Source: a virus (Duplodnaviria; Caudoviricetes). From it: DNA of 53,626 bases. A program made the position numbers and the translations under genes. The notes under the pieces were generated by a model. That model searched no databases, was not told the DNA's origin, and saw only the letters and a list, made by a program, of their open reading frames with translations. Positions within the stretch are counted from its first letter, which is position 1, and each line of letters opens with the position of its first letter. The stretch spans positions 1-53,626 of the IMG/VR virus record IMGVR_UViG_3300037440_000172; one strand, 5' to 3'. This document shows positions 14,835-37,940 of this stretch, piece after piece.

Positions 14835-17800
14835 TCAGCGGATTCCGAGCGCTCTTGCCCGACCGACGGCATAGTTCAGATCGTTGAATTCGACCTGCGC
14901 ACGCTTCTCGATGATGGTCTCACGCCTGTTTGCATCAAGGAGACGACGGCGAACTTCAGGCCAGAGTTCCCGCACCGTGTCGTAATCATAAACCTTCGTG
15001 CCGCGCTTGATCTTGATCTTGTCCATCAGCATGGCGTGGATTCTCGGCGAGACCGTTTTAAGCTCTTCCAGATACGGCTTCACCGGCATCGGTTCCCGGA
15101 ACTCGTAGCCGGGGCGCTGGATTGCTATCAGGCCGTTCAGATATTCCCGGCGGCTGATCTCGCTCATGATCTCGTTCGCCTGCTGACGGACGGCGCGTGT
15201 GACTTCAAGACGCTTCCCGGTTCTTGGATCGTCAACCCGGTTGAACGCCACCTGCCTGGATGTTGCGCTGAGCGCGGTGATGAACTCTTTCGCGCGTTCC
15301 ATCGGATGCAGGCGGCGCTGATCGACATCGTAATGCCCGTTCAGGATTGCATAGGCTCTGGCGTCGTCATCCGTCACCCGACGTTCAAAGAATTTGCGCA
15401 GATCTTCCTGCGTCCAGACCTTGTTCTTAACGGCCTCTTCCTTGTAGGAACCGGCCGGCTGTATGAATTCGCCTCCATCGCGCCCCATGAGATCCCAGAA
15501 ATCTTCCGCGCCGCGCGTCCCGCGCAACCCGCGCGTCGTGCGGATGAACGGATATTCCTGCCAGCGCAATGCAGGCTTGTCCGGGTCTGCTGCATCATAG
15601 GTGCGCAGAATATCCCGAGCCCAATCCGAGCCGAGCGTGTTCATGGTATACTCGACCATGAGTGGCGATACTTCGAACGGCGCGACGGCGTTTATCCCCT
15701 CGGCCATGTCCTTGGACAGCTTCGACGTATAAGCCTTGTAACGATCTTCCGGCAAACGACCCTGCATATATTCCGGCTCGATCGCGCTGTCGAAGAAGTT
15801 GTTCCGACCGTGCTTCCAACCGATATACATGTCGAGCAATGGAGACGAGTGCGGCGGGACAAGGCTGTATCCAAGCGTCTTGCGAAAACGCTGCCATGCC
15901 GTTGGATCTTCGTAGCGCCAGCTATCATATTGCGCGCGCAAAGCGTTCGATGTGACGTTCACGATATCGAACCCGCGCGGAATGCGGTAGGGCTGGCCGT
16001 TGATCGTCATCGGGATGTTGAGCGCGCGTTCAAGCTCCGACTTGTCCCGCAGTTCGTCATCATCATTGAGCATCAGCTCAAGCATCAGATGAGCAACGGC
16101 AATCATCGCAAGGGTTGTCCATGCACGCATGGCGTCCTTCAACGCGTCCTTTTCGGACTTCGTAAGGGTCTTCTCCGCTTGCGATCTCTGGCGATCATCG
16201 AACAGCGGAGCGAGTTTTTTCCGCACCACCTGCGCGGCTGCAAAGACACCTTCATCGGTCTGCGCCAGAAACAACTTGCGGAACATTTTGTCAGGCCCCT
16301 GCAACGCAGGGTTGAGAAACATCACCAATCGATTGAATACGGTCTGGCTGGCGAAATCACCGCTGCGACCATAATCGGTGTAGTCGCGACTTCTCTGCAC
16401 TGCGGATTCCAGCGCAATAAACGTCTGCTGCTCTAGCGGCATTGTCGGATAGCGGCTCTGCGCATCCTTGAAAGCCCTGTCGAACGAAAGACGGGCGAGC
16501 GTTTGCCTGGCATTGGCTTCCGACCATTCCGCCCATTTCCAGAAATCTTCATGGAGCGGGTTGACGGTCCTTGCCCAGAAGTCGCGCCGGGCCGGATTGA
16601 GCACGACGCCTTCCGTGCGCAGACCGGAAACGCGTCCCTGACGCAATTGCTGGATATTGGAGCGGTTGATACCGCCCATGATCCCGCCATGCCGGGCCAG
16701 AATTTGCGCCCATGTCTCTTCGCCACGAGCTTGTCTCGCCTGGTTATCCAGCACCGTCCGGATATTGGAGATGATCGGAAAATAACCAGCCTGCAAGACT
16801 GCTGCGTTATAAGTGTCACGGATGAGGTTGCGCCACAAGAATCCGGGGTGCGCTGTTATCCCTCGCTGCGGAACCCGGACGGCGGCCGTAATCATGTCGA
16901 AGAAGCTATCCCCGAATGGTGTGCCGCGCGTCATCTCGAAAAAGCCGAGAATGTCTTTGGCAATCCCGTGCCCATCATCATGGATTTGCAGCATCTTGAG
17001 AACGCCGTTATCCATGTAGTGCAGGATCGCGTCGCGACCCTCGCCAGCTTGTTCCGACTTGAACAGTTTGGCGACGGCATCTTCCCCGAGCATCGAGGCG
17101 ACGGTGGAGATCATCTCCTTGGCGTCTTCCGGTGGCAAACCTTCTTGAATCGCAGCCGCTTGCAACGCATCGCGAATCCTGACTTCCTCCACCCTCATCC
17201 GTGTCGCCGGGATGATCTCGACATATTGCCCCGCGTTTTCGACCTCATCGGCCATTTTGCCCAGAAGCAATTTCGGCTTGTTGACGGCGATTTCCTGGTT
17301 GGTGTCGTAGACCTGCCGGGCGATGCCCTCGATCGGATCGATGAAATCACGGTACGATCCCTTGATCGCGAACTTCGCCGCGACCTTTCGCCCGCTGACT
17401 GCGGTGCCTTTGAACATTTCATCCGACATGTCGCGGAACCACGGGACATAATCCGGCGTGCCGGTCTTGTACTGGTATTCCTCCAGACTATCCAATCCGG
17501 CCTGATAACGCTTGAGCGCCAGATCTCGCAGGAACTGATAGACCATCTGCGACGCTTGCGCGAATTGCGGGTTTGCCGCTTCCAAATCGGCCACCGCCTG
17601 CTCGTGATCAGCGCGATTGTGCTTATCCGGCGGGCGCATCAGTTCGGTTTCCCAACGCCCGGCAAGAAAAATGCGGCGCTGACGCCGCATTGTGTCGAAA
17701 TACCAATCCCCCTCGCCGGGATTGCCCGGCGGGTTCGGTCCTCGCCCACGATTTTGCGTTGGGCTCATGTCGTGGCGTTGCCACAGCCAGCGCCCGCGCC

Positions 17801-20800
17801 GCGCGATCATGTAGCCGCCGAAGTGGTTCCGCTGTTGCTCGGACCAGTTGTTGAACTCGACACCGCCGTATGCCGTCAGCAGCGCGTCACGCAGACTGAC
17901 TGTGCCCTTGCCGGTAGAATTTTCCCAGTGCACGCCCTGCGTCAGGTCGATGTAAGCGGCGGCATCGGATGAAACGATCTTCTGTGCCTGCATCTGCGGA
18001 TTGCGCCATGCCGACAGGTCGAGTTCCTGATTGTTCCTCTCAGCCTGCCGCGCAATCCGCATCATCACCTTGCGGATTGAATTGGTCTTGTCCCAGCGTC
18101 CTTTATAGACGCGCTCCAAATAGCGCCAGTACATGCCGGAAACAGCAGCCACTCCGCCTTCACTGTACTCGTTGCGTATCGCCTGGAATGTGCTCTCCGG
18201 CACGCCGGACTTGACCGCCGCCGTGATGCGGCCGGCAGACGACGCATCACGCCAGTCTGCATATTGGTCGCGAATTTCCTGAATATCAGCAAGCGTCTGC
18301 GGATCTTGCGCATCCATGAACTCTTCGAACTCGCTGAAGAAGTCGGGCGCGTGAGCTTCCGCTGCCTGCGGGTTCGTGAGATACAGGCGGAAGAATTCGG
18401 CGAACCCTTCGGATACGGTGTCGTTACCGCTCATGCGCGCAATGCCGAGAAGCGCTGGCTGATGTCTGGCCTTCAGCGGGTCCAGATCATACCGGCTTTC
18501 CAAGGCGTGTGCTACTTCGTGCGCTTCGGTGTCGATGTCTTCGAGAACAGCCAGGCGGATCACGCCGGTCTGGCGGCTGTACTGGCCGCGAAGCATACCG
18601 CCCATCTGTGAGGCAAGACGCTTCATTCCCGGATCAAGGCGGCCGCGCTTGACCGTCAGCCCGAGACGTTTGCGCAGATTGCGCTGAATGTCGATCAGCG
18701 AGCCTGCGGGCGATGGCTCAAGGCCTGGCGTCGGTCCAGGCGGTGGCGGCGACAGCGGCAGGTTCGGCATGCTGGTGGGCAGCGTCTGCGCCGCCACGTC
18801 GGCAAGCTGCTCGCGCTCCGGCGCAAATTCGAGAAACGCCTCATTGAACCTTGCCTTGAACTCTCCTTCATCGATCCGGGTGAAGACATCATCAGAGGTC
18901 TGGAAGCCTTCGCCGCGCATGAAGCTGGAGATGCGGGCGATGAAATCCTTGATCCTCTGGAATACCGAGGCGATGGTTCCGGTGAACTGTTTCCTGTTCA
19001 GGTGGAATTCGCTATACTGTTCGGCGATGGCTTCCTTGATGAGGAGATCGTTCATCTCCGTCTCGTTCATGCCGCCCTTGTAGACGCCCTCGTAAGCCTG
19101 CCGGACGCCGGTGGTTTCCACCCAGCCATTACGCTTTGCCGCCGTCTTGAGCGTGTTCCATTCCTTCTCGGTGAACAGGCCCATTGCCTTGAAGAATTCA
19201 ACGGCTTCGTGTCTGAGAACGCGGACGGCTTCCTGAACTGTGGTAACGCCCTTGGCGCGAGCTTCAGCCTCCACCGCCTGCATGGCGATGGAGATGGTCA
19301 TGGTGTAGGGGTCGGTCTGGCCTAGAGCTTCTGCTTGTCTGGATCGAGCATAGAAAATTCCTTCAGACATCGCTCCAGACTGTACAGATTGGGCGCTCCG
19401 GCTGACAATTTCACCCAGTAATCCGGCCCCTGCCGCTCCTCGCGCCTCTTGGAGAAGGGTGTTCTGGAGGATGACTCTCTTAAGAGTACGGCGACCCGCG
19501 CGCGATGCTCTAACGTCGGCAGACGTTTCGGCGAGAGCGTCCAGCATTCCATCAGAAACGGGCTGGCCTTCACCAGTTCGGATGGCTCCTGTTGCGAGGT
19601 CATAACGATAATCCTTGATCTCCGGGAATTTACTTGCGACGGATTCAACGGAGGTTTCCATCAACGATGCTATATTACCAAGAGTATCGCCTTCTGTCCA
19701 TTGCAGTGGAGGCACACCAATTTTCTCATTGCCCGCAATCTGATCTTCATGCGGCTCAAGATGATCTGTCGTCCCGAACTTCAATGCTGACGATAGCATG
19801 TTCTCGGTTCTGCGCCGCAGCGCAATCGCCGACATGCCATCGGGATCGCCGATGAACTTGCGCCCCGTGTTGAGCGCGTAATTGGCGACCGCCGCATAAA
19901 TGGCGGCCCCCGCCTGCCCCTGCCTTACTTCAGAGACATCCATCCAGACGCGGTTGTCGTCCTCGTAAACATGGAAAGGCTTTCTCTCCCCGGTGAGGAA
20001 ATTGTAAATCCTTTTGGCGCCATGTTCGTGGAATCCGATTTCATCGGTGCTCTTGTGCTCGAATGTGAGGCCGCTCGGCTCGGCGGTGTCACTGATAATA
20101 CCAACGACATCCTGCTTGTCAGATTTCGGATAGACGAAGGCGTCATCCGTCTTGGCGAATTCCTGTAGGGCTTTTGCTGCTCTTACCTGCTCCTGAGACG
20201 GCTGGTTCAGAGCAAGCATCTGATCGACAACGCCCTGCCGTTCTTCAGCAGAGACAGGCTTGCCGTTCTTTTTCGTGATCTTGACGAGGCTGTCGTCGAA
20301 AATTACGATGTTGCGGGTGCCGTCGCCAGTCGCGCGTGAGACTTGGTCCAGATATCTGAGGCCGGGAATGCCTGCGTCGCGGAGAAGTTCCGAAACTGTA
20401 ATATTATTAAATTCGCCGCGCCCGTACTTTTCATCGACAATCTGTTTGACTTGAGAGACAGTCCGTTCTGGGTTGTTCGTAAAATCTAGTCTATCAAATA
20501 CCGCCAATGCTTTTTTGCCAACTTCGCCTTGTTCGCTGAGTGGTAAATCCCAATCCAGCAACTGCTCTGGCTCCACGTCGATCTCGACTTCGTAGAGATG
20601 GCCCAGTTTTCGCTCCGTAGCAGGCTTAATATCCCCTTGCTCTAAAAGGCTGATTGCATCCTGTAGGCGCGTAACTTCCTGATCTGGATCAAGAGACTTG
20701 ATGCGCTTGATAGCATTGTCAGCGTTTCCGTTATTTAAATATAAATAGTAGGATGCGACATGGCTTGAGTTATCCATATTAACGACGTTGCCATCCGGGG

Positions 20801-23800
20801 CAACAAGTTGAACGTCGCCTAATACATTCTGATATTCCTTGGCAGTCAGTTCATTCTCGGCAAAATAAAGCCCGTGCCCGAAAACCTGCGCTCCTTCTCC
20901 CGTTCCGATCCGCGACAGATCGAACCTGTCGAAATCATGAGGAGAGCCGTGGAACGCGCGGAGGGCGAGCATCTGGTCAACAGCCTGCTGGCGCTCTTCG
21001 CCAGATACCGGTTCACCATTTCTCTTCGTGATCTTGAGGATTGAATCATCGAAGACGACGTAGTTGTCAGCCCCCAGATCCATCGTCGCCTTGTAGCTGT
21101 TGCCGGCAACGCCTTCTGCGCTTAAAGCTTTCGACGCAAACTCTTCACTGCCTAACGCTTCGGCAAGACGATCGTAGACACTCACACCTTGCAGGGATTC
21201 AATATCTGAACTGTCGATCCCGGCCTTCTCAAGCGCTGCCTTGACCATAGGCAGGATTTTGGGTTGCTCTGACATCATCTGATGAAAGACGAGGAAATCA
21301 TCAGCATCCGCGTCGATTTCAACTTCGTAAAGGAAATCACCTGGATCAACATCCCACTTCGCGACGCGCTCGTATTTTTCCAGCATGGCGTCGGCTTCGG
21401 CAATGTTTTCGTCGCGGCGTGGATGCGATGGGGCGAGGTCGATCGCCTTCTGCCTCATTGCCCTGATCGATTCGCCAAGTTCATCAAAAGTACGGCCATA
21501 ATAATCCTGGCCAGCTACTTTTGCCCCGGCAAACTCCTGAAGCTCTGTGTCGTTGCCAACGGGTTCTCCGTCGATCAGAATGTTCTCGGGGCGGAGCGCA
21601 AGACGATAGGCTTCGCCCTCGATATTACTGCTGCTGAGATAGATGCCCCAGCCTTCCATCTGGGTGCCTTCGCCGGTGCCTATCTTGGACGTATCGAACC
21701 GAGTGAACTCGTGCGGCGAGCCGTGGAACCCGCGAAGAGCAAACATGCTATCGCGCACATTCGCCGCTCTTGCCTCAAGCGGAAGGTTTCGGTAAACCTC
21801 AATCAGCCGTCCACGCTCTTTGACAAGCTCCTTGCGGCGCTCTTCGCGCTTTGCTGACGGGATGCGCATGATGCGGCCAAGCCCGGCGGACAGGCTGCGG
21901 AGTTCGGTGTCGATACGGTCAAGCTCGTTGCTGATTTCAGCCGCGCTGGTCGCTTCTGAAGCGGTTTCTCTACCCTCAAGAGAGAGAGAGCCCTCACTAG
22001 GTTCGCTAGGAGGGCTGGCTACTTCGCCTTGTTCTTGTCGCGCACTGGGCGGCGACCATCCCCATTCCAGAAACGAGTCCCCAGCCGTGAACAATTCACT
22101 TGCAGGAACATACCGTTTAACTAAATGATATTCGCCGTTGAGAGCGGACTCGCCGTGGTCTTTAGCATAATCGCGAGTAATTGTTACCCAGTCGCCCGGA
22201 TTGATGTATGATGGCCCAAGCGTAACGCCACTCCGCTTCCCTTCGACTTTTGGAATTGCTCGGTATATCGCAACTTTTGCATCAGGATTTCCGCGTAGAT
22301 CGCGAATTTTGTTATAAGCTTTGTAGTCAAGTTCATCGTTCCCGGTAGCATAGTAGCGCAGACCGTTTGGTCCATAGAAGTCATCAGGATAGATGCCGTT
22401 CGACGTGACATCGTGGATCGGCGAACCACTCTCCGCATTCGGAGCTGAGTGCTGCCCGCGATAGTCATCCATTCCGCCGGTTTCCTCCTCACCCACTATA
22501 GCAGATGGATCGGATTCTGTCTGCCCCCGTCCTGTACGGAGAGCATAAGATATACGAGGGTCTGTTGGATCGAAGGTGCCGCGGTTGGCGACCGCATCTG
22601 GAATGAGTTGCCCGTCTACGCGAGATCTGAGCTGGCCACCGACTGCCGACTTCGCTTGTGTCGGAGAAAAGAACGCATAGACCGTCGTTGTTTGCCTTGT
22701 CGCCCCTTCAGGGTTGTTGTAAAAATCTACAACATTTTCGATGATTACGCCATCGTGGCCTTCATCCTTCGCGGCCTTGATCTGCTTTTCTGTTCCCTTC
22801 CAGCTCTCACCCTTCGCGTCTATGATTTTGGGGTTGCTGACCGACAGATAAAGCGGGATTGTCTGCGGCTCAGCGTTTTGGTAATCCATGGCGCGGCGGT
22901 CGTCTGCATAGCTATCTGCGACGTTGTAATCTTTGGCCGCGAACCAGACTTCGCCACGCGAAAGTGCTTGAAAGCCTTCTTTGAAAATACCGCGCACGTC
23001 AGGCGCACCGTGATACACGACTAGCGGATTGCCTTGCTCATCAACAATCTTGCTTGATCCAAACCACCGGCGAAACGCAGTTTCTTCCCTTACCGCCAGC
23101 ATCTGATCTTCTCGCCTTAGCGTCGCGATTGCGATATTATCGCGAAGGTCTATGCTGACGGCTTCGGGGAGGATCTTTGCGGCGGCGCGGTCGATGGCGG
23201 CGTTGAGTTCAGACTTTTCGGCTTCCGCTTTCGGCGTCAGCACGACATCGCCAACACCGGGAATTGTATCGGGCAAATTCTCCGGGATCACCATCGCCGC
23301 GAAGCTTCCCGATCTCTGGGACTGCGGCACACGGCGGACATTGCCGTTTCTATCGCGGCGAAGGAAGCCTTTTCTTACCGCTTCATCAATGAGCGGCGCA
23401 AGCTCAGCGTCGGATATTCCAAGCTCTGACGCCCATTTTGAACGCGGGGTCTTGCTGTTCAGGATGGAGGCGAAGGACTGGCGGATCTGGTCTGGATCGG
23501 CTTCGGCGCGTTCCGGGACAGGAATATTGCCTTCGCGAGCCAGACGGCTGGCAGTGTCAACCCATTGGGTAATGAGCCTTGCTTCCGGCCTTGCGTCGAT
23601 TCCCGCCAACGCCGCCGCGTCCGCAGCCATATCGCCGACGACTTGTCCGAGTGCATCCCAATCGTTGTTCTGGGCATGCTCATTGCCTTCGGCGGCTTTC
23701 TTGGCCAGACGCTCGACTATGGTCTTTGCTTCGCCTATGAACGCATCGCGCTTCAGAAGGGATGCAGCATCTTCCTGCAGGATGTTGAAGCGGTCGGCAA

Positions 23801-26114
23801 TCTCGGTTGCGCTGGATGCGCGTGCAAAATCAGTGAGGGTTGATCCGACTTCCTTGCGCCGGGGCGCTGGTGCCGTCTGCTCATCGCGTCCGAACAGCCG
23901 CTTGACGCCCTCAACGCGCTCGTCCATAAGCAGTCTGTCGCTCAGACGATCAAGAACGGCTTGGCGCGCCTGCTTCCCGCTCGGGAAATTACGCCCTGTT
24001 ACTTCATAGGCGACGGATTTCCATTCACCGGCTTTCAGCGTTGGCCCAAGCTGTTCAACGGCTGAACTCAGTTCCGCCTGCTTGTCGATACCTTCAAGCC
24101 GTGAGATAACGTTGCGACCGGCTTCAGAAACCGGTGCGGCGGGCTTCCTGGCTTTCGTCTGTCTCGGTTTCGGCAACGATGCCACCAGTTCATCGAATAC
24201 GGTGGCAAGTTCCGGCGACGCCTGCTGAATGACGCCGCGAAGCTGCTCGATCTGTTCCGGTGTTGCCCCCCGACGGATCGCCATTGCGGCAATGGTTGGC
24301 GCGTCTTCATTGCGGATTGCCATCTCTTCAAGGATGGCGTCAATGCCTTCTCCCTCGCGCGAGACCCGCTCAATGAGTTCCGCCTTGTCGTCATTCGACA
24401 GTCTGCGATATGCATCAGCGAGAACGGGCGTGCCGATCTCTGCATCGATCTCGGCAAGCGCCGGGAAAACGAAATTCTGCTCCGCCGCTTCAAGTTCGCG
24501 GTCAAACTCGTAGGCTTCCTCTATCGCAATGCGCTCACGGTCGGCAGCCTGCTCTGCGACAGGCACAACACGTTCGCCGCGAATGGCGCGGTCGAGAAGG
24601 TCGTAAACATCATCCGGCGTCGTGACGGCAGTTTCATCAGCCACGGATTCGGTGAGAAAGCCAGCCTCAACAAGTGCTTCGCGCGCCTGATCTGGCGTCA
24701 TACCGCGTTGAGAGACCAGCCCCGGATAGCGGCTGGCATCCATTGCATCAGTTTCGCCAGACGGCTGGATGCCGCCGCGCTCACGGATGAAGCGGATAAC
24801 GTTCTCGGACGGAGTTTCAGCCGGGCGCTCGCCGCGCCGCTGGAAGTTAGTAGCATCTTCCGTCGGCGCTTCTACATCAAGACGATCTTCCTTCGTTTCA
24901 CGGGCAACCCGACTTCCCTGATCGAACAGTTGCGCCTCAAGCGCAAGATCACGGTCAACGATTTCCTGCCCGGCCTGAACATCGCGTTTCGCCTGTAACG
25001 CAGAACCCGGCGTCGTGACAGCGCCCGCACCGATGGCCGTTCTGAATGCCGTCTCCGGCACGGTCTCCGTAATGAACCGCTGGATCTCCTCATCGGTGAC
25101 TTCGCGCCCGGCAACCTCTGGCGGAACGAATGTCGTCACCGCTTCCTGCGCAATTTCGGTCGGCACTTCAAGCAGGATCGCGTCTTTGACGATTTCCTTG
25201 CCAAAGCGTTTGATGAATTCCGATGGTGCGCGGAGCGTCCCGCCTTTCGCCAATTGTAGCGCCACCTTGCGCGCGACGGCCTGTCGTGCAGCGCCGTTGA
25301 ACTTCAGGCCAGCGACAACCGGGAATGCAAGGTCGAGCCCAGCCAGAACCATCGTGCCGTAATTCGTGTATTTGACGAGATCGCCGCCTTCGACACGCTC
25401 ACCCTTCAGGGCGTTGCGCATCTCCGAGACATGGTGATGAATCATGCCGGAAAGCGCACCGGCCGTTGCACCGGTGAAGCCGCCGGTTGCACGCCCGAAC
25501 TTACCAAGCGGCGCGCCAGCTTTCTGGCCGAGATACCCGCCCGTGATAGCCCCGGCAATACCCGGAATCTGGATGCCGATCTGCTCCCCGGCGACTTCCT
25601 TCACATAGCCCCAGGCGTCCGACAATCCGTTGATCTGCTTGAACGACTGAAACACCGGCTTGTAATCTGAGCCATCTTCCTGCACGGTCTTGCGCAGACT
25701 GCCGGACCAGTCCCGATAGGACTCCGCATAGCTCGGATCGTCTGACATATCGGCCAGATGTTCGAGCGTGTCGGCATAGGCTTCGAGGTTGCGATTGCCG
25801 AGGCCGTGTTCGAGCGATCCCCAGAATGATGCATCGTCTTTCGTCTGCGGCTGCTCAAAGCCGAAATTCTTGCGTTCAGCATCGGTCAGGACGCGTGATG
25901 ACTCCCGCGCCGTCTGCTGTGACTTCCTGTCAGCGAGCGGCTTGAACCAGTTGTCCTGCGGCGGCACCGACGGCGAGACCGTCTGCTTCGCCGGACTTGG
26001 CTCAACAGGATCGTCATCGAAGGCGTCGAACACGTTGTTGCCTGTCACGCGCGGAGGCGTTATGACGAGAGCATCTTCGTCCTGATCAAAGGCGTCGAAT
26101 GGATTATCGGTCAC
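14835..26114 (-). CDS. giant internal virion / large polyvalent protein (3759 aa)
   Basis: Last gene of the internal-virion block; ART-PolyVal-like 'FRRWFG.SKIVDE.GNPLVVYHG', two 'FHGSPH.F..FD.S.IGTGEG' modules, zincin-like HEAVE and HEVAH motifs, LPD38-like C-terminus. Confidence 0.85.
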   Translation of the reverse strand: MTDNPFDAFDQDEDALVITPPRVTGNNVFDAFDDDPVEPSPAKQTVSPSVPPQDNWFKPLADRKSQQTARESSRVLTDAERKNFGFEQPQTKDDASFWGSLEHGLGNRNLEAYADTLEHLADMSDDPSYAESYRDWSGSLRKTVQEDGSDYKPVFQSFKQINGLSDAWGYVKEVAGEQIGIQIPGIAGAITGGYLGQKAGAPLGKFGRATGGFTGATAGALSGMIHHHVSEMRNALKGERVEGGDLVKYTNYGTMVLAGLDLAFPVVAGLKFNGAARQAVARKVALQLAKGGTLRAPSEFIKRFGKEIVKDAILLEVPTEIAQEAVTTFVPPEVAGREVTDEEIQRFITETVPETAFRTAIGAGAVTTPGSALQAKRDVQAGQEIVDRDLALEAQLFDQGSRVARETKEDRLDVEAPTEDATNFQRRGERPAETPSENVIRFIRERGGIQPSGETDAMDASRYPGLVSQRGMTPDQAREALVEAGFLTESVADETAVTTPDDVYDLLDRAIRGERVVPVAEQAADRERIAIEEAYEFDRELEAAEQNFVFPALAEIDAEIGTPVLADAYRRLSNDDKAELIERVSREGEGIDAILEEMAIRNEDAPTIAAMAIRRGATPEQIEQLRGVIQQASPELATVFDELVASLPKPRQTKARKPAAPVSEAGRNVISRLEGIDKQAELSSAVEQLGPTLKAGEWKSVAYEVTGRNFPSGKQARQAVLDRLSDRLLMDERVEGVKRLFGRDEQTAPAPRRKEVGSTLTDFARASSATEIADRFNILQEDAASLLKRDAFIGEAKTIVERLAKKAAEGNEHAQNNDWDALGQVVGDMAADAAALAGIDARPEARLITQWVDTASRLAREGNIPVPERAEADPDQIRQSFASILNSKTPRSKWASELGISDAELAPLIDEAVRKGFLRRDRNGNVRRVPQSQRSGSFAAMVIPENLPDTIPGVGDVVLTPKAEAEKSELNAAIDRAAAKILPEAVSIDLRDNIAIATLRREDQMLAVREETAFRRWFGSSKIVDEQGNPLVVYHGAPDVRGIFKEGFQALSRGEVWFAAKDYNVADSYADDRRAMDYQNAEPQTIPLYLSVSNPKIIDAKGESWKGTEKQIKAAKDEGHDGVIIENVVDFYNNPEGATRQTTTVYAFFSPTQAKSAVGGQLRSRVDGQLIPDAVANRGTFDPTDPRISYALRTGRGQTESDPSAIVGEEETGGMDDYRGQHSAPNAESGSPIHDVTSNGIYPDDFYGPNGLRYYATGNDELDYKAYNKIRDLRGNPDAKVAIYRAIPKVEGKRSGVTLGPSYINPGDWVTITRDYAKDHGESALNGEYHLVKRYVPASELFTAGDSFLEWGWSPPSARQEQGEVASPPSEPSEGSLSLEGRETASEATSAAEISNELDRIDTELRSLSAGLGRIMRIPSAKREERRKELVKERGRLIEVYRNLPLEARAANVRDSMFALRGFHGSPHEFTRFDTSKIGTGEGTQMEGWGIYLSSSNIEGEAYRLALRPENILIDGEPVGNDTELQEFAGAKVAGQDYYGRTFDELGESIRAMRQKAIDLAPSHPRRDENIAEADAMLEKYERVAKWDVDPGDFLYEVEIDADADDFLVFHQMMSEQPKILPMVKAALEKAGIDSSDIESLQGVSVYDRLAEALGSEEFASKALSAEGVAGNSYKATMDLGADNYVVFDDSILKITKRNGEPVSGEERQQAVDQMLALRAFHGSPHDFDRFDLSRIGTGEGAQVFGHGLYFAENELTAKEYQNVLGDVQLVAPDGNVVNMDNSSHVASYYLYLNNGNADNAIKRIKSLDPDQEVTRLQDAISLLEQGDIKPATERKLGHLYEVEIDVEPEQLLDWDLPLSEQGEVGKKALAVFDRLDFTNNPERTVSQVKQIVDEKYGRGEFNNITVSELLRDAGIPGLRYLDQVSRATGDGTRNIVIFDDSLVKITKKNGKPVSAEERQGVVDQMLALNQPSQEQVRAAKALQEFAKTDDAFVYPKSDKQDVVGIISDTAEPSGLTFEHKSTDEIGFHEHGAKRIYNFLTGERKPFHVYEDDNRVWMDVSEVRQGQAGAAIYAAVANYALNTGRKFIGDPDGMSAIALRRRTENMLSSALKFGTTDHLEPHEDQIAGNEKIGVPPLQWTEGDTLGNIASLMETSVESVASKFPEIKDYRYDLATGAIRTGEGQPVSDGMLDALAETSADVRASRAGRRTLKRVILQNTLLQEARGAAGAGLLGEIVSRSAQSVQSGAMSEGIFYARSRQAEALGQTDPYTMTISIAMQAVEAEARAKGVTTVQEAVRVLRHEAVEFFKAMGLFTEKEWNTLKTAAKRNGWVETTGVRQAYEGVYKGGMNETEMNDLLIKEAIAEQYSEFHLNRKQFTGTIASVFQRIKDFIARISSFMRGEGFQTSDDVFTRIDEGEFKARFNEAFLEFAPEREQLADVAAQTLPTSMPNLPLSPPPPGPTPGLEPSPAGSLIDIQRNLRKRLGLTVKRGRLDPGMKRLASQMGGMLRGQYSRQTGVIRLAVLEDIDTEAHEVAHALESRYDLDPLKARHQPALLGIARMSGNDTVSEGFAEFFRLYLTNPQAAEAHAPDFFSEFEEFMDAQDPQTLADIQEIRDQYADWRDASSAGRITAAVKSGVPESTFQAIRNEYSEGGVAAVSGMYWRYLERVYKGRWDKTNSIRKVMMRIARQAERNNQELDLSAWRNPQMQAQKIVSSDAAAYIDLTQGVHWENSTGKGTVSLRDALLTAYGGVEFNNWSEQQRNHFGGYMIARRGRWLWQRHDMSPTQNRGRGPNPPGNPGEGDWYFDTMRRQRRIFLAGRWETELMRPPDKHNRADHEQAVADLEAANPQFAQASQMVYQFLRDLALKRYQAGLDSLEEYQYKTGTPDYVPWFRDMSDEMFKGTAVSGRKVAAKFAIKGSYRDFIDPIEGIARQVYDTNQEIAVNKPKLLLGKMADEVENAGQYVEIIPATRMRVEEVRIRDALQAAAIQEGLPPEDAKEMISTVASMLGEDAVAKLFKSEQAGEGRDAILHYMDNGVLKMLQIHDDGHGIAKDILGFFEMTRGTPFGDSFFDMITAAVRVPQRGITAHPGFLWRNLIRDTYNAAVLQAGYFPIISNIRTVLDNQARQARGEETWAQILARHGGIMGGINRSNIQQLRQGRVSGLRTEGVVLNPARRDFWARTVNPLHEDFWKWAEWSEANARQTLARLSFDRAFKDAQSRYPTMPLEQQTFIALESAVQRSRDYTDYGRSGDFASQTVFNRLVMFLNPALQGPDKMFRKLFLAQTDEGVFAAAQVVRKKLAPLFDDRQRSQAEKTLTKSEKDALKDAMRAWTTLAMIAVAHLMLELMLNDDDELRDKSELERALNIPMTINGQPYRIPRGFDIVNVTSNALRAQYDSWRYEDPTAWQRFRKTLGYSLVPPHSSPLLDMYIGWKHGRNNFFDSAIEPEYMQGRLPEDRYKAYTSKLSKDMAEGINAVAPFEVSPLMVEYTMNTLGSDWARDILRTYDAADPDKPALRWQEYPFIRTTRGLRGTRGAEDFWDLMGRDGGEFIQPAGSYKEEAVKNKVWTQEDLRKFFERRVTDDDARAYAILNGHYDVDQRRLHPMERAKEFITALSATSRQVAFNRVDDPRTGKRLEVTRAVRQQANEIMSEISRREYLNGLIAIQRPGYEFREPMPVKPYLEELKTVSPRIHAMLMDKIKIKRGTKVYDYDTVRELWPEVRRRLLDANRRETIIEKRAQVEFNDLNYAVGRARALGIR

Positions 26115-28495
26115 TGATTGCCTTGCGTGGAGAGAATGGTTTCAGCCGCACCGGGGCCGTATTTTGAATTGAACTTCGGCGCGAGTGCAGGATTGGAAAG
26201 CAGGAGTTCTATTGCCCGTTGCGGGGGCTTTGGCATGCCGCCTGTGATTGCTGGGCCAGCCTCACCGGCTGACATCAGCGCACCCTGATCCCCTTGCCCG
26301 GTGGGCCGGAATTGACGAAGCGGCCCAGCGCCAAAGGCTTGTTCAGCAGATTCCTCTGACATAACGTTTTCAGAACGTGCGCCACGCCCAAAATATTGCT
26401 GCGTTGGCTCGCCGACGAAATCACCGCCGAATGCTTGTGTTGCCCGATCAGTCTCCGAAAGAAACTCAAGCCTACGAACCTGAGCGGCTGATGGTTGCAA
26501 GCCTTCGAATGCTGTATTCAGAACATCCTCAAGGGCTTCGGCTGTCTCACCGCTGCGATTGTCATATTCAAACGCTCTGGCGGCTGCGACGCGGGCATAA
26601 GAGCCGTATTGCTCATGCAACTTCGCCTGCACTTCATTGAGTGAGTCATAAAGCGCCTGTCCCCCCAGCCCTTTCGTCGGGGCCAGAAGCACCCTTGCTT
26701 CCTGTTTGGTGATCGGGGATTGCAAGCCTTCGGGGATGCCGACTTTCGCCTGTGCATCGATGCGCGCCGAGGCGAGCGCCTGGACGAATTCAGGATCGCC
26801 GGGGTTTTCACGGACGCCCTGCTCTGCGACCTGTATTTCCGGCAACTCGGATACCGATGACGCCGGGTCTTTCTCGCGCTGGTCGCGAAGTTTGGTCGCC
26901 TTCTTCAGCGTTTTGTCGTAGACATCGGCCTTGGCGTCATAATCCGCTTCGCCAGGGTCAGGCTCAACATTGGCAAGACGGTCAACAAGCTCTTCCTCGG
27001 TCAGTTGCGGTAGATCGTTGATCGCCTCGAATTCCATCTTCGCCTTGCGCCGGTTGAGCACATAGCGGTTGATCTGGTTCGGTTCGAGGACTTTCTGCGC
27101 CATCTGCAAGTCTGGATTAGTGCTGACGCCGGTGCGGCGGATCGATTCCTCGTCATCCTTGAGCGCGCGTTTCAGTTCCTCGCGCCGCCCTTCCAGCATC
27201 GAGCCTTCCTGCTTGCGCGCCTTGGCGGTGAACTCGGCCCGCTCCAGCGGCGTCAGTTCCGCATAGCGCGGCGACACATCGCCGGCCGTCCCGCCGATGC
27301 GGTGTATCTTCCGGTCCCAAAGCTTGATAAAATCAGCGCTGGTTACGTCCTCGACGCTGCCGAACTGCTCTTTGACATCGTCCGGTATGTTGCCCCAGAT
27401 GGCCTGCTTCGCCCAGGCTTCGCCCTTCTGCCGGCCTTCTCCGGTGGAGTGCATGTTCATCCATGCGGGCAGTTCCGGATTGGACACATGGGCTTCGTAG
27501 CCGCCCTTGCCCTGCTGGTGGATCAGGTAGAGATCGGTAGCGCTCGGCTCGCGTCCGTATTTTCTCTCGAACTCGGCGGCTTCCGCACTGATCTTCTTTG
27601 CGGCCGCCCGCGCATTGTCGTCGGCATTGTAGATATCGCCGCCGCCATACTTTTCGAATTCGCTGTCGGAAAGCTGATACAACCCCTTGTAGCTTCCTGT
27701 TCGCGCCTTCGGATTGCCGCTGCTTTCGATCTGCGCAAAGGTTCTCAGCAGGTGATCCGGCACGCCGGTTTCCTGTGCGGCCCTGCCGATCGCATCATCC
27801 TGCGGCTTGGCATCCACTCCCGCGCCGGTCAGATCATTGCGCAGCCCTTCAGGATCGGTCAGAAGCCGTGTGTTTGCATCTTCGATGACTGACCCGCGGG
27901 AATACCCTTCGCGCAGATTGGCGGCAACCTTCGGCTCCAGAAGCCCTTTCTGTTCGCCAAGCGTGATTGCCGCTTCGATGTCGGCTCTCGCCTGCCGCCG
28001 CGTTATCTCGTCGGTTGCCGGATCGGTATAGATGCGCTGGTGATGTTTCAACGCCTCCTCGACCTCGACGAACTTGTCCTGCCGCTCCAGGTTCTGCCCG
28101 CGATTGAGCACGGAGTTGAGATTGCTCTCATTCTCGACGCCGGTGCGGAGCGACCACTTCTCCCGGAGCTTTGGATCGCGGATGATCGAAGCGGCGTCCT
28201 GCGTGATCGAGGATGCCCGGCCGCGGAACCGCGGCTCGAACGTCTTGTATTCCGGATCGTCGCTGAACTCGCGCTGCGTCTGGTACATTTCGGTCTTGTA
28301 CTTGGCGTCAGCCTTGATCAGGTCGAGAGCGTTCTCCTCTTCCTTCCGGGCTTCGCCGATAGCCGTGAGTGACGCGCCCAGTCGGGCAAGCCCCTGCCCG
28401 ACTGCTGCACCAGCGCCGCCACGACCAAAGTTGGCCTGCGGACGCCTGGCGAATGTCGGGCTGCCTGGCGCTGTTTTATCTGGAATGCGTGCCAA
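26111..28495 (-). CDS. internal virion protein with lytic transglycosylase (SLT-like) domain
   Basis: AQIESSGNP...GLYQL...NARAAA...YLIHQQG lysozyme-fold motifs within a helical protein. Confidence 0.8.
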   Translation of the reverse strand: MARIPDKTAPGSPTFARRPQANFGRGGAGAAVGQGLARLGASLTAIGEARKEEENALDLIKADAKYKTEMYQTQREFSDDPEYKTFEPRFRGRASSITQDAASIIRDPKLREKWSLRTGVENESNLNSVLNRGQNLERQDKFVEVEEALKHHQRIYTDPATDEITRRQARADIEAAITLGEQKGLLEPKVAANLREGYSRGSVIEDANTRLLTDPEGLRNDLTGAGVDAKPQDDAIGRAAQETGVPDHLLRTFAQIESSGNPKARTGSYKGLYQLSDSEFEKYGGGDIYNADDNARAAAKKISAEAAEFERKYGREPSATDLYLIHQQGKGGYEAHVSNPELPAWMNMHSTGEGRQKGEAWAKQAIWGNIPDDVKEQFGSVEDVTSADFIKLWDRKIHRIGGTAGDVSPRYAELTPLERAEFTAKARKQEGSMLEGRREELKRALKDDEESIRRTGVSTNPDLQMAQKVLEPNQINRYVLNRRKAKMEFEAINDLPQLTEEELVDRLANVEPDPGEADYDAKADVYDKTLKKATKLRDQREKDPASSVSELPEIQVAEQGVRENPGDPEFVQALASARIDAQAKVGIPEGLQSPITKQEARVLLAPTKGLGGQALYDSLNEVQAKLHEQYGSYARVAAARAFEYDNRSGETAEALEDVLNTAFEGLQPSAAQVRRLEFLSETDRATQAFGGDFVGEPTQQYFGRGARSENVMSEESAEQAFGAGPLRQFRPTGQGDQGALMSAGEAGPAITGGMPKPPQRAIELLLSNPALAPKFNSKYGPGAAETILSTQGNQ

Positions 28496-32298: not shown

Positions 32299-32937
32299 TT
32301 AGCCGTTCTGGCGATAGTCGTAGTGGCGGCCGAGCCCGCCGCGGCGGGCGGTGACAAGACGGCCGGGGGGTGGTGATACAGACGCCTGGTTCATGGCGTC
32401 CTTGGAGCGCGCGTTCTTGAGGCGGGCCATGCATTTCTTTTCGAGCGCTGCTTCATCTTCTTTGCCAAACCCGGTGACGGTCGGTCCGACCCGCAAGCCG
32501 AGTCTGCACCCGACATAGAGCGCGAACGTCTCCGGCCATAGGGAGAGGTCAAGCCCATAGCTGGTGTGGTTGGACACGTAGCTGACATAGAGCGGGTCGA
32601 AATCGGCATGCCAGTTTGTGGTCTCGTCGGCATAGCCTTCGGCCCCGATCGGCGGCCACATCGTGCCGTTGCCGGAAATATTCGACGTTCGCACCCAGTC
32701 TGACGGCTTCTCGAAGGCATAGGAATAACCGAACGACGGCGTCACGCTCTCTGAATGCTCGATCGCCACGGTGCGCATGGCGAAGTTCCAGAAGCCTTCT
32801 TCGAGACATTCCAGCAGCGTATCGTCATAGACGCGGTCAAGCTCGTAGCGGATGAAGATATCGTCGGTGACGGTTGCAATCGGAGTTTGCCTCAAAACTC
32901 TGCAAGCCTCTTGCATGACCTTGAGTTTGGTAGCCAA
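32299..32937 (-). CDS. tail tubular protein A / adaptor
   Basis: TTG start after GAGGG (MATKLKVMQEA); WNFA, FGYSYAF..PSD, ARSKDA motifs. Confidence 0.8.
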   Translation of the reverse strand: MATKLKVMQEACRVLRQTPIATVTDDIFIRYELDRVYDDTLLECLEEGFWNFAMRTVAIEHSESVTPSFGYSYAFEKPSDWVRTSNISGNGTMWPPIGAEGYADETTNWHADFDPLYVSYVSNHTSYGLDLSLWPETFALYVGCRLGLRVGPTVTGFGKEDEAALEKKCMARLKNARSKDAMNQASVSPPPGRLVTARRGGLGRHYDYRQNG

Positions 32938-32955
32938 GTGTGCTATCCCTCTTCT

Positions 32956-33897
32956 ATGGGAAAATTTATCGATCTGACGGGGAAGCGCTTCGGTCGTCTG
33001 ACCGTTGCGCACAAAACCAAAAAACCGAATTCATCTCGGCTGATGTGGGATTGTAATTGCGATTGCGGTGGCTCAACCGTTGCGACCAGCTACTGCCTCA
33101 AGGCTGGTCGCACGCAATCGTGTGGCTGCCTACAACGGGAAAGAACATCAGCAGCCGCAAAGATTAAGAGCCGCACACACGGACTGACCAATCACCCTCT
33201 TTATAAGCTCTGGACTAGCATGAGATCGCGTTGCAACAACCCACTTGCCGTTGGATATGAACGGTATGGGGGCATTGGTGTCCGCGTCAGCAAACGATGG
33301 GATGACTTCCCAACTTTCATCAAGGATATTGGCCCTCGACCATCACCTGAGCACTCGCTTGATCGCCATCCGGACCCGACCGGTAATTACGAGCCGGGGA
33401 ACGTGCGCTGGGCCACGAGAACTGAGCAGAATAATAACAAACGAGACACGACGTACGTCCTCTACAAAAACAAAAGGCTGCCATTGCAGGAAGCCAGAAG
33501 GCTCGCGGGCAGTGTCGTAACCTCGCCGGAGCTGCGCAGGCGCCTACGCGCCGGATGGCCGCTAAAGGACGCGCTGGAAACTCCATTGCGCGTCTACGAA
33601 AACCCAAAGTTCACTCACTCTGGAGTATCGCTTACGTTGCGTGAGTGGGCAGAACGCACCGGCATCTCTGAGGACGCCCTTCGCTATCGAATAGCCGAAG
33701 GCTGGGGTATACGCAAAGCACTTACAACAAAAGCTATCCGCCAAAAGGTGATATACCGAGGTCAGAAAATGTGGCTTTCACAAGCGATCAAGGAAAGCGG
33801 ATCGCTTGTTTCGTTGTCGTCTGCATGGACTCGGCTGAAAAAAGGTTGGTCTGTCGAGCGCGCCGTTGAAACGCCCCGCACGGATTCTCGCGCTTAG
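32956..33897 (+). CDS. free-standing HNH homing endonuclease, antisense to the late operon
   Basis: DLTGKRFGRLTV, CNCDCG, SCGC, YGGIG, SLDR...GNYEPGNVRWAT; three C-terminal HTH-like repeats. Confidence 0.85.
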   Translation: MGKFIDLTGKRFGRLTVAHKTKKPNSSRLMWDCNCDCGGSTVATSYCLKAGRTQSCGCLQRERTSAAAKIKSRTHGLTNHPLYKLWTSMRSRCNNPLAVGYERYGGIGVRVSKRWDDFPTFIKDIGPRPSPEHSLDRHPDPTGNYEPGNVRWATRTEQNNNKRDTTYVLYKNKRLPLQEARRLAGSVVTSPELRRRLRAGWPLKDALETPLRVYENPKFTHSGVSLTLREWAERTGISEDALRYRIAEGWGIRKALTTKAIRQKVIYRGQKMWLSQAIKESGSLVSLSSAWTRLKKGWSVERAVETPRTDSRA

Positions 33898-35607: not shown

Positions 35608-37940
35608 TTATGTCGCTACGTACCGGGACCCGTCATGCAAAACTTGCACGATCCCGGAGTTTTGCAGAAGTTTTGCATTATGTTCGGCAAGACCCGCGAC
35701 GTTCTTGCCCGCCTTTCGGCTGCTGCATGTCTCCATGCAGATCAGACTATCTCATCACCCGCGTGGGGTGCGATGCGCTTCGGGCCGCTTGGCCCTACGA
35801 GCCGTAGCTCTAGTCGTTACACCTTCCTGATGATCAGGCTTGGCTCGGTATTGCCCTCGACTTGACGTTAGGGGGTTTACCGAATTCACATCGTTTGCGC
35901 TACACTATTGCTAGTGTAGGGGTCCAGAACTTAAACCGTGATACAAGCTAGCGTTGGTCCATGAGTTCTTTTGCTTCTTCTCATCTTCAGTGTTCAGTTG
36001 AAATCGCTAGTTTCAACCTGTTCTATACTATAGAACTACTGCATATTTCTATGCAGAACAGACTATATCATCAGCCCTTGGGGCTGTCGGGCGCTTCGGC
36101 TGCCTATCGCTTGCAGCCTACTCCCTTGCGGGATAGTCGTTGAACGTTTCGCCTTTCGGCGACTTCGCTGCTGATTGCCCTCGGCCTGACCGTTAGGGGT
36201 TCCCAGCAATTCACCCGATTTGCGCTGCGTTATTGCTAATGCAGGGGCCTGGAAGTTAAGCCGACGTCGACCTCCATGTCCTTCATGTTGGCCGCATGCC
36301 CCATCGCGTTCCTGTGCAGGAAGTAGCACTGCTCCGAAGAGGTTGCTTTCCCGGTCAGGCGCGTTGAGGTGATCCAGTTGAGGCCGCATGCACGCCACAG
36401 GCGGCGAACCGGGCCGCTGAGCATCTTGACATCCTGATAATCGCCGGACGTATATTCCTTGGTCTGGCGAATAAAGGCGCGAAAGGCCGGGGTGATGATG
36501 GCGAACATGTTGTCCTCCTCAGCCACCGGCACGTCGTTGTTGCCAAGAATTGTCATCGCATGCTCAACCAGCGACATGCTGGCCTCGGCAGCCGAACCGG
36601 TATCGTTGGTTGCGGTGTCGAGCTGGGTCACGATCACGTCGTCGATATCGCGATTGAGCGTCGCGATCGACGATTCCTGCATGATGCGTTTCTGGTTGCC
36701 CTGGCTTGCAAAGATGTTGAAGTCCGTCGTTTCGACAACCCCACAATATTTATGAGGTCAGACTGTAGCTTCCCCCGCAGGGGTTTGCCCGCTCAGTCGT
36801 TGCAGGTGGTCGCGATGAGATGCTAAAAGCTGCTCTATCTTATGCTTTTTCAGTCTCGAATGCTGTACAAGGCGAGGCAGAAAATCCAAGGCGAAAGATC
36901 TGTCTTTCGGCCCGATGTTTCTTTCCCAAATCATGCATTTTGCATTTGAAGAATGCTGCCTGATGTAACCGCCATGAGCCTTATGGATGAACTCCAGCAC
37001 GGTGCCGTCTCCCTCGTGGCATGATGCGTGCACCGATGCCTGATTGGAGTAGCGCGGCTCGCCTTTGTAGCTACCATTCCTTTTTCGGCCCACTCGAAAG
37101 GAGCCATTGCCGTCAAGGTAACCGGCCAGCCAAGCGTAAGACGGAAAGTTCTTTGGCTTCAGCGGACCGCTTTCAAGGCGTGAGGCTTTGGAAAACTCTT
37201 TCAGAGCCTCGCATTCTTCGATAGAGAGCGACTGTCCTCGCTTTTCTCTCCATATTTCAAACAAGCGCTGCAAGTGACCGCCCTTGACAAAGGCGTGCTT
37301 GACCAAACGCGGGATCAGCATCTCAAGATGAGCCCTCTTCATGACCGTCCAGCGGTTCATGGGGTGGCTGCTCTTGTTGTACCCCAGCGTCGTATCAACA
37401 CGGCCAAAGCCAGTTTGATCGGGCAGGGTTGCAATGAACCTGTGAAAGTCCACGGCTTCTGATGCAGAAATCGCAATCGTCAGATACAGCTTAAATGCCG
37501 TTCTGTCAGCATTAGGAGCATTGAAATTGAAGCAGATGGCTCCATCTGAATCGATGAGACCAGCGAGATATTTTACAAGCACTTCATGCATTCTCTAACC
37601 CTTTATTTGTGACAGGGGAGAATAACCTTCCTTCGTGTTGCGCCAATAGTCAATGACGTTTCCACGTTATTCAGGGCAAATTCCGCTAGTGTATTAACGG
37701 CGCGTGCTTCTCAGTCAACGTGCAAGTCAGCTGCGTATTGTCCACGACACCGAACGGGATAAGACCGTTGATGCCGCGCGTTACCGCGGAAGCGCTTCCG
37801 GAGCCGGACACGAGGAAAATCGCAGTATTCCCCTTGATCACGGCTTCCTGAACACATGCCAAACGCAGATCAGAATATCTCTGTTCGAACGTCTGGATGT
37901 ACTCTTCGCGGTAACTGTCCATGAATGCAGATTCTGACAT
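35608..37940 (-). CDS. major capsid protein, spliced: join(37940-37697, 36735-36259, 35984-35934, 35675-35608), 279 aa
   Basis: Follows portal and scaffold. Removing three U|...G| introns gives an uninterrupted 840-nt ORF with junctions TEKHAP/FETTDF, EVDVG/YEKKQ, SLYHG/SKLLQ. Confidence 0.88.
35676..35933 (-). mobile_element. group I intron 3 (258 nt, ORF-less, IA2-like)
   Basis: P1 GGUU/GACC with U.G; P3 CGAUGUG/CGCAUCG; P4 UUCGGUA/UACCGAG; P7 GACUA/UAGUC; P7.1 and P7.2 hairpins; terminal G. Confidence 0.9.
35985..36258 (-). mobile_element. group I intron 2 (274 nt, ORF-less, IA2-like)
   Basis: P1 GGCU/GGCC; P AAUUGCUGGGAA, Q AAUCAGCAG, R UUCAACGACUA, S GAUAUAGUC; P3 UCGGGUG/CGCCCGA; terminal G. 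Confidence 0.92.
36736..37696 (-). mobile_element. group I intron 1 (961 nt) carrying a LAGLIDADG ORF
   Basis: P1 CCGU/GCGG with U.G; P3 UUUGCCC/GGGCAAA; P4 CGUG/CACG; P7 GACUG/CAGUC; P9 hairpin then terminal G. Confidence 0.88.
36758..37591 (-). CDS. intron-encoded double-motif LAGLIDADG homing endonuclease
   Basis: YLAGLIDSDG and WLAGYLDGNG motifs. Confidence 0.92.
   Translation of the reverse strand: MHEVLVKYLAGLIDSDGAICFNFNAPNADRTAFKLYLTIAISASEAVDFHRFIATLPDQTGFGRVDTTLGYNKSSHPMNRWTVMKRAHLEMLIPRLVKHAFVKGGHLQRLFEIWREKRGQSLSIEECEALKEFSKASRLESGPLKPKNFPSYAWLAGYLDGNGSFRVGRKRNGSYKGEPRYSNQASVHASCHEGDGTVLEFIHKAHGGYIRQHSSNAKCMIWERNIGPKDRSFALDFLPRLVQHSRLKKHKIEQLLASHRDHLQRLSGQTPAGEATV

Follow-up and report, generated by a model that had tools for sequence, protein, structure and literature searches.

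The stretch of DNA analysed here, referred to as the window, is a 53,626-base pair (bp) linear virus record from IMG/VR (IMGVR_UViG_3300037440_000172), and its minus strand holds, at 37940-35608, a major capsid gene that is divided into four exons by three inserts. The region is directly preceded by a scaffold-like gene (39380-38169, minus strand), and no intact capsid open reading frame (ORF) was found between this gene and the next genes. Exon 1 (37940-37697, minus strand, as are all capsid and intron features given below; 244 nucleotides (nt)) supplies codons 1-81 together with the first base of codon 82, exon 2 (36735-36259) contributes 477 nt, exon 3 (35984-35934) 51 nt, and exon 4 (35675-35608) 68 nt including the stop codon. 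When joined, the four exons form a single frame of 840 nt, consisting of 279 codons and a stop. The inserts, designated intron 1 (37696-36736; 961 nt), intron 2 (36258-35985; 274 nt) and intron 3 (35933-35676; 258 nt), are each preceded by a T, start with TAA and end in G, and all three junctions are in phase 1, read-through of the unspliced sequence encountering a stop at codon 4, 8 and 8, respectively. These observations reproduce what an earlier note on the same DNA had described, namely the absence of an intact capsid ORF after the scaffold gene, the coordinates and lengths of exons and inserts, the 279-codon joined frame, the U before each insert that can pair with a guide G in helix P1, the TAA and G at the insert ends, the phase-1 junctions, and an in-frame stop within 8 codons of each of them.

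The product of the joined frame was identified by profile matches and alignment. Exon 1 matches phrog_3437, annotated as 'major head protein', over profile positions 6-84 of 294, exon 2 matches the same family over positions 89-259, and exon 2 alone scores 43.4 bits against PF19821 (Phage_capsid_2; cut-off 25). When longer proteins matching exon 2 were sought, at least 120 homologs were obtained, mostly of exactly 279 amino acids (aa), from which 18 uninterrupted proteins were picked for alignment with the joined protein. All 18 align with it across 279 columns with no gap in any row, 17 of them being 279 aa long themselves, and identity ranges from 93.2% (P0001) down to 50.9%. The gapless alignment extends through exon 3, which covers residues 241-258, and through exon 4 to the C-terminus, and the three split codons yield F82, Y241 and S258, all of which fall in well conserved columns. 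As judged from the alignment this colinearity is far beyond chance, and we assign the 279-aa product as the major head (capsid) protein; alignment to intron-less homologs, which the earlier note had named as a check of the joined frame, was in full agreement with it. A tblastn search of phage records with exon 2 returned one weak hit only, indicating that this phage collection holds no isolated close relative of the capsid gene.

Introns 2 and 3 are ORF-less group I introns. Against RF00028, the Rfam group I model, for which the gathering score is 50 bits, intron 2 scored 93.7 bits at 36267-36039 and intron 3 scored 64.2 bits at 35943-35723, in both cases across the full model (1-253), which places the two in group I by score. 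In both, P1 places the U of the 5' splice site opposite a G, the last base is G, and excision restores the frame; alleles that lack exactly these 274 nt and 258 nt are known at the DNA level. Each carries an insert between P7 and P3', resembling P7.1/P7.2 in intron 2, and extra helices at this position presumably mark the two as members of subgroup IA; two further hairpins after the modelled P9 extend to the predicted 3' ends. Aligned with each other, introns 2 and 3 prove to be paralogs, and compensatory changes are seen in P2 and P3. Their cores match 333 phage records by blastn and, among the matches listed, these lie in terminase, polymerase and helicase genes. Site 2 is located 477 nt from site 1, and site 3 lies 51 nt beyond site 2; the two ORF-less introns may be relics, passengers of co-conversion, or elements aided by nearby free-standing HNH endonuclease genes.

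Intron 1 is a compact insert of group I type which lacks P2 and contains an ORF in its P6 region. Its P1 guide is located at 37688-37683, P3 joins 37680-37674 with 36790-36784, P4 joins 37666-37663 with 37637-37634, P7 joins 36798-36794 with 36765-36761, P8 occupies 36783-36772, and a P9 hairpin at approximately 36757-36738 is followed by the terminal G at 36736. By blastn, intron 1 had no match among 50,697 phage records. Its ORF has homologs at 14 IMG/VR loci (L030-L043) and in the isolated Pseudomonas phage HHBS10_2 (L029; 38% identity), and at all of these loci the ORF lies between the same pair of RNA anchor motifs. The family was compared across 13 distinct members, with the helices set by fixed offsets from the two anchor motifs. 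In P7 (5 bp) and P8 (4 bp, with a UNCG-type loop) standard pairs were observed in 117 of 117 cells, both sides having changed in six of the nine pairs, and the covariation score was reached by none of 500 shuffles, while sliding the partner by one to three columns left pairing in just 28-44% of cells. P3 is a long-range helix between a 7-nt strand that precedes the ORF and a second one close to the end of the ORF, some 800 nt away, and pairs in 89 of 91 cells despite all 13 strand sequences being different; permuted partners gave a mean of 50.7 and a maximum of 68, with 0 of 2000 permutations reaching 89, and slid versions gave 26-40. P4 is maintained through the variants CGUG/CACG, CAGG/CCUG, CGGG/CCCG and CGUA/UACG. 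By eye, P5 is a hairpin whose sequence varies among members, and all 13 have a U at the 5' splice site for which the guide sequence offers a G as partner, and end in G. The resulting order, P1-P3-P4-P5-P4'-P6(ORF)-P7-P3'-P8-P7'-P9-terminal G, is that of group I introns with their P3/P7 pseudoknot, and the J6/7-P7 and J8/7-P7' letters of intron 1 resemble those of introns 2 and 3. The intron-1 family has no P2 and nothing between P7 and P3'. From this comparative structure we interpret intron 1 as a group I intron of compact form, belonging to a family outside the reach of the Rfam model. Further family copies were sought in the window with the two anchor patterns, which gave isolated hits at 20738, 26222, 25469 and 18175; none has a partner at intron distance, three lie inside a 3759-aa frame (start 26114) with that at 26222 just outside it, and all four were judged to be chance occurrences.

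The ORF of intron 1 (37591-36758, minus strand) encodes a 277-aa double-motif LAGLIDADG homing endonuclease as predicted by its match to PF00961 (34.8 bits, cut-off 23.1), and both LAGLIDADG motifs are seen in the alignment of its homologs. The intron has only 105 nt before the ORF and 22 nt after it, which forces a ribozyme core to extend into the end of the ORF: the last 14 or so codons coincide with P7, P3' and P8, and the endonuclease stop codon directly follows P7'. The conserved C-terminal 'QRL' of these endonucleases is encoded by the J6/7-P7 ribozyme segment, such that RNA and protein constraints overlap there. In LAGLIDADG enzymes generally, each motif is closed by an acidic catalytic residue; here motif 1 has D, whereas motif 2 is GNG in both the window and L030, and GDG in the other eight of the ten homologs aligned. 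By eye, a hairpin before the endonuclease start codon (approximately 37620-37592, minus strand) pairs the purine-rich ribosome-binding stretch, and a similar hairpin is present at the same place in L029, L031, L037 and L041 and in most family members. In the T4 introns the start sites of homing endonucleases are sequestered, and the hairpin before the start codon of intron 1 resembles that arrangement.

The intron-1 family was also encountered in other capsid genes. At L030 (90-2394) a capsid homolog that is 56% identical to that of the window is split by four inserts, all of the intron-1 family, at 118-1054 (with endonuclease), 1079-1262, 1455-1626 and 1635-1812, located after codon positions 10, 18, 82 and 84, and removal of the four gives a gapless 277-aa capsid protein. 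One of its ORF-less copies occupies the same codon-82 site as intron 1 and is separated from the next intron by an exon of just 8 nt (1627-1634), and the endonuclease-bearing copy sits at a different site from that of the window. In L029, L031, L037 and L041 the interrupted gene has its match in phrog_267, 'major head protein' (E 1e-38 to 1e-55), and the endonuclease-bearing copy sits 14-35 codons into it; L034, L036 and L042 have the same flanking peptides as these four. The intron-1 family is thus met with in two different families of capsid genes, phrog_3437 and phrog_267. ORF-less members, three in L030 and one in L044, measure 165-184 nt in total. At L044 (363-1522, minus strand) the ORF-less member (1516-1352) occupies the same capsid site as the copies of L031-L040, and a second LAGLIDADG ORF of the family (1181-363) begins about 170 nt further downstream, suggesting that this capsid gene probably has at least two introns. 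A scan of viral contigs with a strict degenerate pattern recovered only the L030 contig and L044, the pattern probably being too strict to gauge how frequent the family is. In HHBS10_2 (PQ287653.1; L029, 2405-3289) the intron lies near the 5' end of the major head gene, and the downstream exon matches phrog_267 at E 2e-55; in the record the ORF is named 'HNH endonuclease', the capsid gene goes unannotated, and a hypothetical coding sequence on the reverse strand covers the capsid exon. Just downstream of the head genes on the L030 contig (2752-2825, minus strand) there is also a match to RF00519 (mmgR/suhB small RNA of Alphaproteobacteria; 59.3 bits, cut-off 41), which hints, as a phage-borne copy of a host-type small RNA, at the host group; no match to RF00519 was found within the window. 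Relatives are located in contigs of Alphaproteobacteria-like character.

Relatives of the capsid gene provide a series of alleles in which the introns are independently present or absent. Over the matched span, all 23 viral and all three genome loci with capsid homologs are uninterrupted, six being cut by contig ends, and the same applies to 16 of 19 metagenome loci, the three interrupted ones being the closest relatives of the window. In L046 (94% protein identity) exons 1 and 2 and exons 2 and 3 are joined directly, and the insert at site 3 is kept (RF00028, 64 bits). L051 (91%) is without introns 1 and 3 and keeps intron 2 (93.1 bits). L050 (95%) starts inside intron 1, the last 340 nt or so of which run into exon 2, and is without introns 2 and 3. 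Site 1 is empty in L002 (92% DNA identity), and P0001 (93%) is an uninterrupted 279-aa product with no introns. In soil DNA (run X6), the contig of record 25 skips 35983-36258, corresponding exactly to intron 2, with two letters replacing the first two bases of exon 3 at the junction, yet contains intron 3, while record 27 contains intron 2; record 14 of run X4 and record 21 of run X5 span the ends of intron 1. The break points in relatives all fall at the predicted coordinates, and such exact empty sites are proof, at the DNA level, of the insert boundaries. Since each intron occurs alone in some allele of 91-95% identity, the introns are mobile and have been gained or lost independently of each other. 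In comparison with L046 and L002, the exon 1 side (37954-37696) has a DNA identity of 85.7% and exon 2 (36735-36259) one of 95.6%, a step located exactly at the intron-1 site, as is expected if recombination starts at the endonuclease cut.

The same data bear on two other explanations. The window being a linear metagenomic contig with an estimated completeness of about 68%, its capsid gene might be a decaying pseudogene in a defective element, or its inserts might be assembly chimeras. We regard both as very improbable, as the exons are all in frame, align without a gap and are 93% identical to intact homologs, the intron cores are intact, the same junctions occur in record 14 of X4, record 21 of X5 and records 25 and 27 of X6, and L046, L050 and L051 have single introns at the same places. 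The earlier note had proposed, in addition, that the three splicing events could act as a timing or nutrient checkpoint; on this view they would have been selected as a control on capsid synthesis that responds, for instance, to guanosine triphosphate (GTP). Unspliced RNA indeed cannot yield capsid protein, and group I splicing is known to use guanosine; the hairpin over the purine-rich stretch before the endonuclease start codon suggests some regulation of the endonuclease and not of the capsid. Relatives of 91-95% identity nevertheless have no intron or just one, in each case a different one, and capsid loci are uninterrupted in the large majority of the collections examined. A device on which regulation depended would hardly be this dispensable, and selection for a checkpoint is consequently unlikely; the alleles with none or one intron are more in keeping with selfish mobile introns than with built-in regulation, and the checkpoint proposal found no support.

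Taken together, these observations make it very probable that the locus represents a podovirus major capsid gene interrupted by three mobile group I introns, the triply spliced message of which encodes the capsid protein. According to this scheme, which follows established group I biology, each intron would fold within the late pre-mRNA, free guanosine would attack after the U of the U.G pair in P1, docking of the intron's terminal G would come next, and the exons would finally be ligated, such that only the triply spliced message of 840 nt would encode the 279-aa protein. The endonuclease of intron 1 would be translated and cut those capsid alleles of co-infecting relatives that have no intron, repair then copying the intron into the cut allele. 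The dependence of capsid production on three splicing events, as stated in the earlier note, follows from the in-frame stops, the splicing itself being a prediction from intron structure.

Several points weigh against the mobile group I intron reading. The record is metagenomic and about 68% complete, and among the listed sequencing runs that hold the stretch none is on record as RNA. RF00028 gave no match to intron 1 (36720-37710) even at E<=10, nor to the ORF-less family copies A-C of L030 at E<=1 or E<=10, and the other Rfam matches on intron 1 and its ORF-less relatives were to unrelated families and at chance level. Intron 1 consequently falls in group I by its architecture and not by its Rfam score, and as Rfam is blind to it the assignment rests on comparative structure, the pairing and covariation comparisons of which took in P7, P8, P3 and P4. 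J3/4 of intron 1 is unusually long at 7 nt. For seven members other than those of the window and L030 the 3' splice site was placed at a G chosen to keep the downstream frame open, as a result of which their terminal G is partly a product of construction; in the window and L030 the 3' ends are independently fixed by the gapless protein alignment. Finally, the N in place of D in motif 2 means that the enzyme may nick or be weakened. Run X15, labelled RNA-Seq and probably DNA, was rejected as RNA evidence, as it consists mainly of conserved intron cores of other organisms, below 95% likeness and with many loose ends.

Some of these points could also be read as signs that, with introns 2 and 3 being group I introns, intron 1 does not splice itself, and is an endonuclease-bearing insertion that either needs a maturase or a host factor or cannot be removed at all, leaving a dead capsid allele. 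The failure of RF00028 to match intron 1 or the ORF-less copies A-C of L030 fits this explanation, as do the ability of LAGLIDADG proteins to act as maturases and the altered motif 2. It is nonetheless improbable, given that the family keeps the full group I helix order with strong covariation, the U.G pair, the terminal G and J6/7-P7 and J8/7-P7' letters resembling those of introns 2 and 3. Moreover, ORF-less copies whose removal restores an intact frame exist in L030 and L044, indicating that no cis-encoded protein is needed in those copies, and the family is present in the capsid gene of an isolated, viable phage (L029). Outside the core, the alignment of the four ORF-less members is poor. 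A group II intron, an intein and translational bypass were considered as further candidates for intron 1 and rejected in view of the in-frame stops, the group I helix order and a domain search that gave no Hint or reverse-transcriptase signal. The group I introns claimed by the earlier note are therefore supported directly by RF00028 for introns 2 and 3, and by comparative structure for intron 1, which the model check proposed in that note left unmatched.

A wider reading, which we put forward tentatively, is that intron 1 belongs to an unmodelled minimal group I subgroup specialised in major capsid genes, and that gene conversion of the capsid region is driven by the intron endonuclease and HNH enzymes. 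The traits of the proposed subgroup are a core of about 165-185 nt, the absence of P2 and of P7.1/7.2, a 7-nt J3/4 and a UNCG-capped P8. Its members would come with or without a LAGLIDADG gene whose tail is encoded by the ribozyme core, would occur in at least two capsid families, and would in some phages accumulate in a single capsid gene, as the four copies of L030 do. If true, endonuclease- or HNH-driven conversion directed against intron-less competitors would explain the identity step at the intron-1 site.

The genes around the capsid region are those of a podovirus with T7-like gene order, in which terminase, portal, scaffold, capsid and tail tube genes follow each other. They include a terminase large subunit (42905-41289), a T7-type portal (41259-39538; PF12236) and tail tubular proteins A (33012-32299) and B (32091-29347), all on the minus strand. 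A free-standing HNH endonuclease gene (35205-34540, minus strand; phrog_374 and phrog_3377, E 3e-63 and 1e-50) lies about 400 nt downstream of the capsid gene and is a possible helper in trans, by prediction, for the ORF-less introns. A second such gene, at 32755-33897 on the plus strand, overlaps the start of the gene for tail tubular protein A, and both HNH genes (phrog_374, phrog_3377; E down to 3e-63) are positioned between the head and tail genes. The single ORF of 3759 aa at 14835-26114 (minus strand) contains ParB-C-like, lytic-domain-like and unknown segments and adjoins a 794-aa protein of transglycosylase type, the two being probably giant internal virion (ejection) proteins. An N4-like phage, which was the first guess from the 3759-aa ORF, was dropped in view of the internal-virion and lytic-domain matches and the T7-like tail-tube genes.

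If splicing proceeds as predicted, the most abundant protein of the virion can be made only after three RNA splicing events. The locus gains further interest from the series of alleles with and without introns, from a sister gene with four introns, and from an intron family that standard models miss. Alleles with three introns, with each single intron or with none, at 91-95% identity, are ideal for measuring the cost, benefit and movement of the introns. Neither gene callers nor Rfam pick up the intron-1 family, and as a result the capsid gene is unannotated in at least one isolated phage record (HHBS10_2, PQ287653). Hits of the Rfam model were also the seed of the largest group I database of recent date (PMC11835236), and for this reason it may lack the intron-1 family too.

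Introns 2 and 3 resemble the introns of T4 td, nrdB and sunY and the phage introns matched by blastn in their core and in the extra helices between P7 and P3', but they are without an ORF and are located in a capsid gene. Work by Landthaler and Shub from 1999 is said to have found three group I introns in one gene, orf142 of Staphylococcus phage Twort, and to have shown their self-splicing. The case of orf142 is like that of the window in its three introns per gene, and different in gene and host. An intron endonuclease of phage PhiPA3 interferes with a co-infecting phage (PMC11620839). Its target is reportedly not a capsid gene. Jug phages are described as intron-dense, carrying 18.5 introns per genome with a mean length of about 206 nt (PMC12880540). 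No description of a compact intron family of capsid genes turned up in the literature searched, subscription texts and supplements lying outside that search, and we do not claim that the family is unpublished. The remark of the earlier note that described phage group I introns mostly interrupt genes of DNA metabolism, with fewer cases in late genes, is a fair one, but introns in capsid genes have already been published, as two reports describe (PMC3706429, PMC7886860).

In the first of these, mycobacteriophage LittleE (Pope et al. 2013) has, in its major capsid gene, what is probably a group I intron carrying a LAGLIDADG-like ORF. Splicing of this intron was demonstrated both in RNA and by N-terminal protein sequencing through the junction, and the close relative Omega has an empty site (PMC3706429). 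LittleE shares with the window a LAGLIDADG-type intron in the major capsid gene and an empty site in a close relative; LittleE, however, is a siphovirus with one intron whose ORF is on the opposite strand, whereas the window has three introns, with a same-strand ORF that overlaps the core, and is known from sequence alone. The second (Yutin et al. 2021) concerns Delta- and Zeta-group crAss-like phages, whose major capsid gene carries group I introns, one such gene being in five fragments with three of the spacers encoding intron-type domains (PMC7886860). These are phages of Bacteroidetes with genomes of 145-192 kilobases, whose introns were recognised mainly through their endonuclease domains (PMC7886860), whereas the window has a T7-like gene order and documentation of both RNA structure and empty sites, and two of its three introns have no ORF. 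Introns in phage capsid genes are thus already known, and the most novel part of the locus described here, when set beside these systems, is the intron-1 family that Rfam leaves undetected.

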